This document shows positions 6,913 through 9,171 of a stretch of DNA of 34,573 nucleotides, piece by piece. Below the pieces are notes generated by a model, which worked only from the letters and a program-made list of their open reading frames with translations, made no database searches and was not told the origin of the DNA. This DNA comes from Rhodanobacteraceae bacterium. Its GTDB lineage: Bacteria; Pseudomonadota; Gammaproteobacteria; Xanthomonadales; Rhodanobacteraceae. The position numbers and the translations under genes were made by a program. Location of the stretch: assembly GCA_035701405.1 (NCBI GenBank), contig DASSNH010000139.1, positions 1 to 34,573 on the forward strand, written 5' to 3'. Position 1 is the first letter of the stretch; every line of letters begins with the position of its first letter.

Positions 6913-9171
6913 ATGGATCAGTCGAGAATGCCGGGTTTCTACAAGTTGTCGGTGCCAGAGCGCGTCAACCTCGTGCGCGAGCGCGGCATGCTTTCGCGCG
7001 AGGACTTCCAGACCCTGTTGAGCGGCGGCCACACGCTTACGGTCGCGCGCGCCGACAAGATGATCGAGAACGTCATCGGGGTGATGGGCCTGCCGCTCGG
7101 GCTCGGCCTCAACTTCCTGGTCAACGGCAAGGACCGGGTGGTGCCGCTGGTGGTCGAGGAACCCTCGATCGTGGCGGCGCTGTCCTCCGCGGCGAAGGTG
7201 GTGCGGGCAGCGGGCGGCTTCACCACGCGGTCGACCGAACCGATCCTGATCGGCCAGGTGCAGATCGTCGACGTCGACAATTCTCCGGCAGCGCAGAATG
7301 CGCTGCTGCAGCGCAAGCAGGAGATCCTCAACCTCGCCAACAGCCTGCATCCCAAGATGGTCGCGCGCGGCGGCGGTGCCCGTGACATCGAAGTGCGCAT
7401 CCACCCAGCCGCCGACGGCCGCCGCGACATGGTGGTGCTGCACCTGCTGGTGAATACCTGCGACGCGATGGGCGCGAACATGGTCAACACCATGTGCGAG
7501 GGGGTGGCGCCGCTGGTCGAGGGCATCACCGGCGGCAAGGTATTCCTGCGGATCCTGTCCAACCTCACGGACCGCGCGCTGGTATGGGCGAAGGCCGTGA
7601 TCCCGACCAAGCTCCTCGCGGGCAATGGCTACGACGGCGAACAGGTGCGCGACGGCATCATCCTCGCCAACGACCTCGCGGTGTGCGACCCCTACCGCGC
7701 CGCCACCCACAACAAGGGCATCATGAACGGCGTCGACGCCGTCGCGCTTGCGACCGGCAACGACTGGCGCGCGCTCGAAGCCGCCGCGCACGCCTACGCG
7801 GCGCGCGGCGAGCACTACACCTCGCTGACCCGCTGGTACAAGGACGACGAAGGCAACCTGGTCGGCAACATCGAGATGCCGATGAAGGTCGGGACCGTCG
7901 GCGGCAACCTGCAATCCAACGCGACCGTGGCGCTCAACCTGCGCCTGCTCAAAGCCCAAGGCGCGCGCGAGCTCGCCGAGATCATGGGCGCGGTGGGACT
8001 CGCACAGAACTTCTCGGCGCTGCGCGCGCTGGTCACCGACGGCATCCAGCAGGGCCATATGACGCTGCACGCGCGCAGCGTCGCCGCCACGGCGGGCGCC
8101 GCCCCGGAAATCTTCGACACGGTCGTCGAACGCTTGCTCGACAGCGGAGAGATCAAGGTGTGGAAGGCCAAGGAGATCATCGCGGAAGTCACCGACCAGG
8201 CGCAGCCCGAAGCGAAGACCGTCGCGCACGGCTTCGAGCCGGTGGACGAGGCCGAGTACGCGACCGGCTACGGCAAGGCCATCCTGCTCGGCGAACACGC
8301 GGTGGTGTACGGCCGCCACGCGATCGCGGTGCCGGTGCCGATGGCGATCCGCGCACGTGCCGAGGAATCGAAGGACGGCACCCAGCTCATCATCCCGCGC
8401 TGGGGTGTCGAGCAGCGCCTGGTGCCGGGCACCAAGCATCCCGGTTCGCTGCTGCAGTCGCTCGACCTGATCCTGCAGAAGCTCGGACTCACGAAGCGGC
8501 CGCTGCGCATCCAGGTTTATCCCAGCCTGCCGCGTGCCAACGGCCTCGGCGGCTCGGCGGCGCTCGCGGTCGCGGTGATACGCGCGCTGGACCGGCATTG
8601 CGCACTCGGCCTCACCGACAGTGAGGTCTGTGCATTGTCCTACGAATGCGAGCGTGTCGCGCACGGCACCCCGTCCGGCATCGACAACACCGTGGCGACC
8701 TACGGGCAACCGCTGCTGTTCCAGCGCGGTGAACCCCCGGTCGTCGAACCGCTGCACTTCGCCAAGCCGCTGCCGATGGTGGTGGGCCTGTCGGGGGTGG
8801 AGAGCCTGACCGCGAAAACGGTACGGTGCGTGCGCGAAGCCTGGCAGCGCAACCGCAAGCTGTACGAACGCATCTTCGACGAAATCGACGCACTCGCGAT
8901 GCAGGGCATCAAGGCCCTGGCGGCCTGGGACTTGCAGCAGTTCGGCGAACTGATGAATATCTGCCAGGGCCAGCTCAATGCCTTGCAGGTATCGAGCTGG
9001 GAACTGGAGGAGATGATCCAGGTCGCGCGCGCGAACGGCGCCGTTGGCGCCAAGCTCACCGGCGGCGGCGGCGGCGGCGCGATGATCGCGCTCTGCCCCG
9101 ACAATCCCGGCCGCGTCGTGCGCGCGCTGCAACAGGCCGGCTACCAGGCGATGGAAACGAACATTGGCTGA
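6913..9171 (+). CDS. Bifunctional fusion: class II HMG-CoA reductase (N-terminal, about 430 aa) and mevalonate kinase (C-terminal, about 300 aa)
   Basis: HMGR part: ENVIGVMGLPLG, EEPSIVAA, DAMGANMVN, HNKGIMNG, GTVGG, and HMTLHAR (flap His). A linker lies at about 8185-8262 (EVTDQAQPEAKTVAHGFEPVDEAEY). MVK part: GKAILLGEHAVVYG, LPRANGLGGSAALAVAV, TPSGIDN, KLTGGGGGGAMIAL. No stop or frame change between the halves. ATG 6913 is preferred (GAGGAA at 6901-6906) over TTG 6892. Confidence 0.9.
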   Translation: MDQSRMPGFYKLSVPERVNLVRERGMLSREDFQTLLSGGHTLTVARADKMIENVIGVMGLPLGLGLNFLVNGKDRVVPLVVEEPSIVAALSSAAKVVRAAGGFTTRSTEPILIGQVQIVDVDNSPAAQNALLQRKQEILNLANSLHPKMVARGGGARDIEVRIHPAADGRRDMVVLHLLVNTCDAMGANMVNTMCEGVAPLVEGITGGKVFLRILSNLTDRALVWAKAVIPTKLLAGNGYDGEQVRDGIILANDLAVCDPYRAATHNKGIMNGVDAVALATGNDWRALEAAAHAYAARGEHYTSLTRWYKDDEGNLVGNIEMPMKVGTVGGNLQSNATVALNLRLLKAQGARELAEIMGAVGLAQNFSALRALVTDGIQQGHMTLHARSVAATAGAAPEIFDTVVERLLDSGEIKVWKAKEIIAEVTDQAQPEAKTVAHGFEPVDEAEYATGYGKAILLGEHAVVYGRHAIAVPVPMAIRARAEESKDGTQLIIPRWGVEQRLVPGTKHPGSLLQSLDLILQKLGLTKRPLRIQVYPSLPRANGLGGSAALAVAVIRALDRHCALGLTDSEVCALSYECERVAHGTPSGIDNTVATYGQPLLFQRGEPPVVEPLHFAKPLPMVVGLSGVESLTAKTVRCVREAWQRNRKLYERIFDEIDALAMQGIKALAAWDLQQFGELMNICQGQLNALQVSSWELEEMIQVARANGAVGAKLTGGGGGGAMIALCPDNPGRVVRALQQAGYQAMETNIG

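Follow-up and report, generated by a model that had tools for sequence, protein, structure and literature searches.

The 34,573-nucleotide stretch of DNA analyzed here (contig DASSNH010000139.1 of the Rhodanobacteraceae assembly GCA_035701405.1; "the window" below) contains a single open reading frame (ORF) in which a class II HMG-CoA reductase (HMGR; HMG-CoA stands for 3-hydroxy-3-methylglutaryl-CoA) is joined in frame to a mevalonate kinase (MVK). We propose, with a probability of about 0.85 and on the strength of sequence comparisons, that its product is truly bifunctional and serves the mevalonate pathway in the biosynthetic direction, the two domains being joined by a flexible tether. Four closely spaced genes, of which the fusion is number three, form an operon of the order MVD-PMK-[HMGR-MVK]-IDI, where MVD is diphosphomevalonate decarboxylase, PMK is phosphomevalonate kinase and IDI is isopentenyl-diphosphate isomerase.

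The reading frame on the forward strand can be opened at a TTG (6892..9171, 759 residues) or at the ATG at 6913, which gives a protein of 752 residues. The ATG is preceded by a Shine-Dalgarno-like sequence, and the N-terminus that it specifies, MDQSRMPGFYKL, also begins the homologues in alignment A1. The GC content of the window is approximately 0.59–0.72 and gives rise to long spurious ORFs, in spite of which the E-values of the profile matches put the coding strand of 6913–9171 beyond doubt as the forward one. An antisense ORF of 874 residues (6736..9360, reverse strand) extends across the entire fusion gene; there is no evidence that it is coding, and shadow ORFs such as this one are to be expected at 68% GC. 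A scan of positions 1–16000 for promoters and terminators gave no promoter-like sites, and the terminator-like sites matched the expectation from shuffled sequence.

The N-terminal half is a class II HMGR by profile, catalytic residues and flap domain, and its catalytic activity is predicted on that basis. Specifically, the Pfam profile HMG-CoA_red (PF00368) matches residues 14–387 over positions 2–368 of 368 (E = 2.5e-108, 362.8 bits against a cut-off of 27), and the best NCBIfam model for this half is TIGR00532 ("HMG-CoA reductase, degradative"; 420 bits, cut-off 259.95). Residues 4–423 align with residues 5–422 of the 428-residue Pseudomonas mevalonii enzyme (1qax), with the flap domain covered. 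The catalytic residues E83, K268, D284 and H386 align with Glu83, Lys267, Asp283 and His381 of the P. mevalonii enzyme and do not vary in the 17 fusion homologues of alignment A1.

The C-terminal half likewise is a mevalonate kinase by profile and motifs, from which phosphorylation of mevalonate at C5 by ATP is predicted. Residues 454–727 match the MVK equivalog TIGR00549 over profile positions 3–276 of 276 (234.7 bits, cut-off 163.05), GHMP_kinases_N (PF00288) and GHMP_kinases_C (PF08544) are found above their cut-offs at residues 516–597 and 666–744, and this half aligns over its full length with the solved mevalonate kinases 2hfs (E = 7e-41), 2x7i and 6mde. The motifs are GYGKAILLGEH (with K455), PRANGLGGSAA (S548), E580, PSGIDN (D591) and the glycine-rich motif 3, KLTGGGGGG. 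We take K455, S548, E580 and D591 to be the counterparts of K13, S146, E193 and D204 of rat mevalonate kinase, the 11-residue spacing between E580 and D591 being equal to that between E193 and D204. An exchange of roles, with the upstream 341-residue GHMP kinase as MVK proper and PMK as the identity of the fused domain, was rejected, since the fused domain scores above the cut-off of the MVK equivalog and the upstream protein is above no cut-off, its best scores being to PMK models. A first-pass annotation of the sequence had described a single 752-residue frame at 6913–9171 with class II HMGR signatures up to the flap His (HMTLHAR), an acidic and proline-containing linker at about 8185–8262, and GHMP motifs with the catalytic Asp region SGIDN, and had read it as the fusion of two consecutive mevalonate steps. 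All of this is borne out by the ORF listing, by the Pfam and NCBIfam models and by the end-to-end alignments with solved structures, which place the linker at 8191–8256 and in which none of the catalytic residues of either active site has been lost.

The genes around the fusion fit this assignment. A separate PMK-like GHMP kinase and MVD adjoin it, as MVK activity of the fused domain would lead one to expect, so that MVK, PMK, MVD and IDI are all co-located with HMGR in what amounts to a lower mevalonate-pathway operon. The ATG of the PMK-like gene overlaps the stop of MVD (ATGA) and the TTG start of IDI overlaps the stop of the fusion by 8 nt, which suggests translational coupling. The same neighbors recur in other genomes. 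A scan that covered a single genome for each GTDB species matched the fusion in at least 592 of these species representatives; in the loci compared for their neighbors, PMK lies immediately upstream in 70 of 71, MVD lies upstream in 68 of 71, and IDI lies immediately downstream in 77 of 77.

How the two halves are connected bears directly on how the protein might work. The inter-domain linker, TDQAQPEAKTVAHGFEPVDEAE, has six acidic residues and two prolines among its 22. In the 80 loci examined for frame and linker, the best 80 of these matches, the spacer from the flap motif to the G(Y/H)GK motif of the kinase takes 12 different lengths, from 25 to 37 residues, and its sequence is nearly unalignable between lineages. 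The AlphaFold2 model of the monomer, of moderate overall confidence, has two folded domains with no confident packing between them (mean predicted local distance difference test, pLDDT, 70.7; predicted template modeling score, pTM, 0.43); residues 430–444 of the linker fall below a pLDDT of 50 and the block 431–440 averages 29. The hypervariable linker, the low pLDDT and pTM values and the existence of a protein with the reverse domain order (MVK-HMGR, P0145) therefore favor a "beads on a string" enzyme. We propose that the two modules fold independently and are held by a short, flexible and poorly conserved tether that starts where the flap domain of the reductase ends. The N-terminal class II HMGR would convert HMG-CoA to (R)-mevalonate, the cofactor probably being NADPH or either of the two, and on the same polypeptide the C-terminal GHMP kinase would convert mevalonate and ATP to mevalonate-5-phosphate. 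The likely gains from the fusion are a fixed 1:1 expression of the two activities, their co-localization and the rapid ATP-driven trapping of mevalonate, which would render the reversible reductase step effectively irreversible; no sealed channel is indicated. The operon as a whole would turn HMG-CoA into isopentenyl diphosphate (IPP) and dimethylallyl diphosphate (DMAPP), with HMG-CoA synthase (HMGS) encoded elsewhere.

The strongest rival is true substrate channeling, a possibility raised from the sequence at first reading, in which the kinase docks by the active site or flap of the reductase within the oligomer and mevalonate is passed on without equilibrating with the cytosol. It has in its favor that the two enzymes catalyze consecutive steps, that the kinase follows immediately on the final helix of the flap, a mobile element that shuts over the active site of the reductase, that the fusion is strongly kept by selection, and that further condensations (PMK-HMGR-MVK and HMGR-MVK-IDI) exist. 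Nevertheless, we consider it unlikely. A linker that is unconserved, varies from 25 to 37 residues and is predicted to be disordered is not what channeling would call for, the model offers no predicted interface between the domains, the reverse-order protein argues against a geometry-specific interface, and mevalonate is small, soluble and stable, so that little would be gained by protecting it. A broader proposal, and one that we regard as distinctly unlikely, is that the fusion represents one stage of a process by which, in Gammaproteobacteria, enzymes of the mevalonate and hopanoid pathways are being drawn together step by step into multi-enzyme polypeptides. A dimeric or hexameric HMGR core would in that case scaffold the kinases by the moving flap, the kinases would receive mevalonate directly, and the flux would be bound to a hopanoid-linked module, acquired horizontally, that has replaced the methylerythritol phosphate (MEP) pathway in some lineages. 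It is also highly improbable that the fusion serves as a translational unit only, with the reductase and the kinase separated afterwards by proteolysis of the linker or produced apart by internal initiation. An exposed linker that is predicted to be disordered would be accessible to proteases; however, no cleavage motif and no internal start or ribosome-binding site is conserved across the hypervariable linkers of the 80 loci, and keeping the frame through many insertions and deletions would be needless for separate products, for which a stop and a restart would do equally well.

We return to the reading as a tethered bifunctional enzyme and to the direction in which its reductase works. Class II HMGRs have been sorted by Miller and Kung according to the cofactor helix, Dx(V/L)xxxL marking the NADH enzymes and (H/Y)xSxxxR the NADPH enzymes (PMC13488460). 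The aligned helices are DQLLNSL in P. mevalonii, DKVLIGL in Delftia, YPSIVKR in the NADPH-specific enzyme of Streptococcus pneumoniae and HPKMVAR in the window protein, and in the latter two the helix is followed by GGGARD. The NADH motif is not matched by the window helix, and the NADPH motif is matched at positions 1 (H) and 7 (R) and differs at position 3. H146, P147, M149, A151 and R152 are invariant across the 17 diverse fusions of alignment A1, and in the set of HMGR domains used for the tree described below the clade of the window protein is uniformly HPxM(V/I)AR. Together, the NADPH-like helix and the MVD-PMK-fusion-IDI operon point to a biosynthetic role. A catabolic role, in which mevalonate is oxidized to HMG-CoA as in P. 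mevalonii, has in its favor that the "degradative" model TIGR00532 is the best NCBIfam match and that the P. mevalonii enzyme is the best match in the Protein Data Bank (PDB). We give it next to no credence, for a kinase on the same polypeptide would draw on the mevalonate to be oxidized, the other genes of the operon (MVD, PMK and IDI) all belong to biosynthesis, the helix lacks the Dx(V/L)xxxL of the NADH enzymes, no HMG-CoA lyase or mevalonate transporter was found in the operon by NCBIfam and Pfam searches of its ORFs, and the gene is located within a hopanoid biosynthesis cluster. Hence the earlier suggestion that fusion had redirected a P. mevalonii-like, catabolic HMGR holds for the biosynthetic direction, to which the operon points, and fails for the catabolic type, the helix being NADPH-like HPKMVAR and not DQLLNSL.

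The fusion is also widespread and its frame is conserved. A search of 5.8 billion proteins, drawn from NCBI, JGI, ENA and Logan assemblies, listed 120 clusters, and all 120 among the matches listed are proteins of about 750 residues with 67–94% identity and all three Pfam domains. In the genome scan the best 80 of the at least 592 matches cover residues 1–752 or end only at contig ends, with both domains in one frame and no stops in 80 of 80. Full-length proteins of 94–98% identity occur in metagenome-assembled genomes (MAGs) of Rhodanobacteraceae, the nearest locus (L001) being from one of these at 98%, an identity that assigns the window to that family, and the isolates among the best 80 include Rhodanobacter lindaniclasticus DSM 17932, Dyella monticola, D. 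flava, D. psychrodurans, Wenzhouxiangella sediminis, W. limi and Marinobacter gelidimuriae. The spacer has undergone many insertions and deletions, all of them multiples of three, and the frame has always been kept, a pattern that indicates selection for the fusion as such. Indels can occur in metagenome assemblies of high GC content, but the possibility that adjacent mvaA and mvk genes were merged by a lost stop or a frameshift at the junction, a concern of the first-pass annotation, is effectively refuted by identical architecture in all 80 independent loci across 12 linker lengths, by the isolate genomes and by the 120 protein clusters, comparative evidence that is stronger than read support would be.

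Three points weigh against a tethered, biosynthetic enzyme as we propose it. The first is that class II HMGR is an obligate dimer. The AlphaFold2 model is of a monomer, and the alignment behind it is shallow (17 sequences), so that interfaces formed only in the HMGR dimer or a higher oligomer are invisible to it and a structured contact between HMGR and MVK may yet exist. The second concerns the cofactor, in that position 3 of the helix is Lys or Asn and not the Ser of the characterized NADPH enzymes, which leaves room for a dual or unusual preference. In the HMGR of R. pomeroyi, exchange of the helix Asp for Lys raised the NADPH activity 53.7-fold (PMC12292504), and we infer that the reductase probably uses NADPH or both cofactors and works in the biosynthetic direction. 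The third is that no HMGS or thiolase was found in the 34.6-kb window by NCBIfam and Pfam searches of all large ORFs or by tblastn probes, and HMGS was likewise not found beside the operon in Marinobacter and R. lindaniclasticus.

Relatives bear on the last of these points. A Pfam-confirmed HMGS lies near the operon in eight of 82 related loci (for instance at 15337–16815, forward, in L058 and at 20044–21582, reverse, in L018); it directly follows HpnB in loci of Nevskiales and Salinisphaerales, and in one Rhodanobacteraceae MAG with a 90% identical fusion it is about 9 kb from the operon. A feed of the pathway from leucine catabolism, which had been considered in view of the missing HMGS, was dropped once HMGS was found in these relatives. 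Published surveys list Wenzhouxiangella, Woeseia and Dyella caseinilytica as having the mevalonate pathway only, with both pathways given for Rhodanobacter (PMC13001223, Table S1), and in D. caseinilytica HMGS, HMGR-II, MVK and diphosphomevalonate decarboxylase were detected and IspF, IspG and IspH were not (PMC10663253, Table S1). On the basis of HMGS in relatives and of these surveys, the mevalonate pathway would be complete and in some relatives the sole route to IPP. Locus L018, from a Rhodanobacteraceae MAG, also carries at 13962–16352 (forward), a few kilobases from the mevalonate operon, a TIR-domain/TPR protein (TIR_2 and ThsB_TIR matches), possibly a defense gene and unrelated to the fusion.

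Comparison with characterized enzymes sets the protein apart from each of its nearest counterparts. The best structural matches (E = 1e-119 to 1e-113) are the HMGRs of P. mevalonii (1QAX, 1R31, 4I4B), Delftia acidovorans (6DIO) and Burkholderia cenocepacia (6P7K). Enzymes of the P. mevalonii type share with the window protein an alignment over the whole enzyme, flap included, and identical catalytic Glu, Lys, Asp and His, whereas they are stand-alone, NADH-dependent and oxidative or catabolic with a Dx(V/L)xxxL helix, and the window protein has HPKMVAR and a C-terminal kinase. The S. pneumoniae enzyme (class II, NADPH-dependent; 3QAE, 5WPJ) resembles it in the cofactor helix (YPSIVKR-GGGARD against HPKMVAR-GGGARD) and in its biosynthetic role, and differs in its lower similarity (E = 1e-104), in having Ser and not Lys at helix position 3 and in being unfused. 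The stand-alone mevalonate kinases of Leishmania major (2HFS), Staphylococcus aureus (2X7I) and Methanosarcina mazei (6MDE) share motifs 1–3 and the catalytic Lys, Ser, Glu and Asp with the kinase half, but are separate polypeptides.

Among natural fusions, MvaE of Enterococcus faecalis, an acetoacetyl-CoA thiolase-HMGR, is the one cited as known (PMC13001223). It too is a bifunctional mevalonate-pathway protein with a class II HMGR (HMGR part, 7M1Z, E = 2.9e-82); however, its second enzyme is an N-terminal thiolase and the steps are not consecutive, in contrast to the C-terminal GHMP kinase and consecutive steps here. Indeed, Pfam and NCBIfam find no thiolase domain in the window protein, in which HMGR starts at residue 1, so that its architecture is not that of MvaE. 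IspDF, a widespread natural fusion of two enzymes of the MEP pathway (PMC13001223, PMC10663253), also joins two enzymes of isoprenoid-precursor synthesis, although in another pathway, with other folds and for non-consecutive steps. Nor is MvaE the only other HMGR fusion, as had been supposed at the outset, since the databases hold PMK-HMGR-MVK (P0077, two records, in a hopanoid cluster), HMGR-MVK-NUDIX(IDI) (P0122, P0123), the reverse-order protein already mentioned, GHMP-HMGR (P0153), HMGR-polyprenyl synthase (P0159), HMGR-polyprenyl synthase-squalene synthase (P0175, P0182), HMGR-squalene synthase-epimerase (P0161) and HMGR-cyclase-like (P0157) proteins. Loci L081 and L082 (6001–9396) are among these multi-enzyme records, some of which may be gene-calling artefacts.

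The HMGR-MVK architecture itself is abundant, is catalogued through precomputed Pfam domains in the databases, and is mis-named. Clustering at 50% identity gives about 19 representative clusters of full-length HMGR-MVK, down to 36% identity, which, with the at least 592 species-level genomes, does away with the initial impression that the fusion is rare. In a neighbor-joining tree of 130 HMGR domains, without support values, the clade of the window protein is tight and distant fusions are scattered among unfused enzymes; such a tree is compatible with a single origin of the fusion as well as with several. The fusion thus is common, and as to its having been characterized already, no description of a natural HMGR-MVK fusion was found in full-text literature searches, in which the subscription literature is not covered for certain, nor is one given in a 2026 review of the diversity of bacterial isoprenoid pathways or in a study from 2026 on the phylogeny and structure of bacterial HMGRs. 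At NCBI the proteins P0001–P0120 and those of loci L001–L080 carry only the name "hydroxymethylglutaryl-CoA reductase, degradative", which leaves the kinase half unnamed, is at odds with both the operon and the cofactor helix, and suggests a physiological direction that is wrong. For this reason MVK could be missed, or the pathway misread, when pathways are surveyed or metabolism is reconstructed in Rhodanobacteraceae, Nevskiales, Wenzhouxiangellaceae and related groups. A compact natural HMGR-MVK with an NADPH-like helix might also be a ready part for heterologous mevalonate pathways, and it offers a clean system for asking whether tethering consecutive enzymes brings a kinetic advantage. Current understanding is not overturned, since both domains and the principle of pathway fusion are well known, and a specialist would be unsurprised.

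Table 1. Features of the fusion gene and of its surroundings in the window (coordinates are window positions).
Feature	Coordinates	Strand	Basis or remark
HMGR-MVK fusion, single ORF (752 aa plus stop)	6913..9171	+	Pfam/NCBIfam matches; Rhodanobacteraceae MAG homologues
Shine-Dalgarno-like GAGGA	6902..6906	+	6 nt 5' of ATG 6913; sequence pattern only
Class II HMGR domain, residues 1-426, C-terminal flap included	6913..8190	+	PF00368, TIGR00532, 1qax alignment
Cofactor helix H146-P-K-M-V-A-R152, NADPH-like, without NADH-specifying Asp	7348..7368	+	Aligned to P. mevalonii DQLLNSL and S. pneumoniae YPSIVKR
Motif GHMTLHAR of the flap domain, catalytic His386 included	8053..8076	+	1qax alignment
Inter-domain linker, residues 427-448 (22 residues)	8191..8256	+	Unconserved in homologues; low pLDDT
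GHMP-type mevalonate kinase domain (residues 449-752) and stop codon	8257..9171	+	TIGR00549; 2hfs, 2x7i, 6mde alignments
Diphosphomevalonate decarboxylase (MVD)	4815..5873	+	TIGR01240, 275 bits
341-aa GHMP kinase, probable phosphomevalonate kinase (PMK)	5870..6895	+	Best NCBIfam matches are PMK models, all below cut-off
Type 1 isopentenyl-diphosphate isomerase (IDI)	9164..9778	+	NF002995, 169.5 bits
Upstream hopanoid genes: squalene synthase-like, squalene-hopene cyclase, HpnG, HpnA	26..4845	+	NCBIfam
Downstream hopanoid genes: HpnH, HpnB-like glycosyltransferase	11184..13452	+	TIGR03470, 521.7 bits; TIGR03469, 311.5 bits, below cut-off

The mevalonate operon sits in the middle of a hopanoid gene cluster (Table 1), a minus-strand Acyl_transf_3 gene following downstream and then HpnH and the HpnB-like gene. 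The hopanoid-embedded arrangement recurs in many, not all, loci of Rhodanobacteraceae, Nevskiales and Wenzhouxiangellaceae: HpnH is within 4 kb in 35 of 58 loci and squalene-hopene cyclase within 7 kb in 24 of 58, and 18 of the 49 loci with full flanks have no nearby hopanoid gene. As the operon of the window lies inside such a cluster, we propose that it supplies at least the hopanoid pathway with precursors, and its frequent placement there would be a pointer to hopanoid precursor supply in acid- and metal-tolerant soil bacteria.

Further genes of the window lie in or near this cluster. The squalene synthase gene (26–1198, forward) is matched best by the single-enzyme model TIGR01559 (124 bits, below cut-off), with the HpnC and HpnD models scoring less, which suggests a one-protein route to squalene. 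Beside the hopanoid genes lie a weak family-28-like glycosyltransferase (17951–19030, reverse) and a membrane protein with a match to the transmembrane region of lysyl-phosphatidylglycerol synthase (14043–15755, forward), and these two may act as accessories that modify lipids for the cluster. A gene at 15768–17672 (reverse) encodes some 634 residues; its product is rich in GTLTN-like repeats and has a C-terminal PEP-CTERM sorting motif (PF07589, 21 bits), with no other family match, and lies within a stretch of lower GC (16000–18000, 0.59–0.60). A tRNA-Arg (CCT) at 19255–19331 (forward) directly precedes an aldehyde dehydrogenase gene at 19335–21011.

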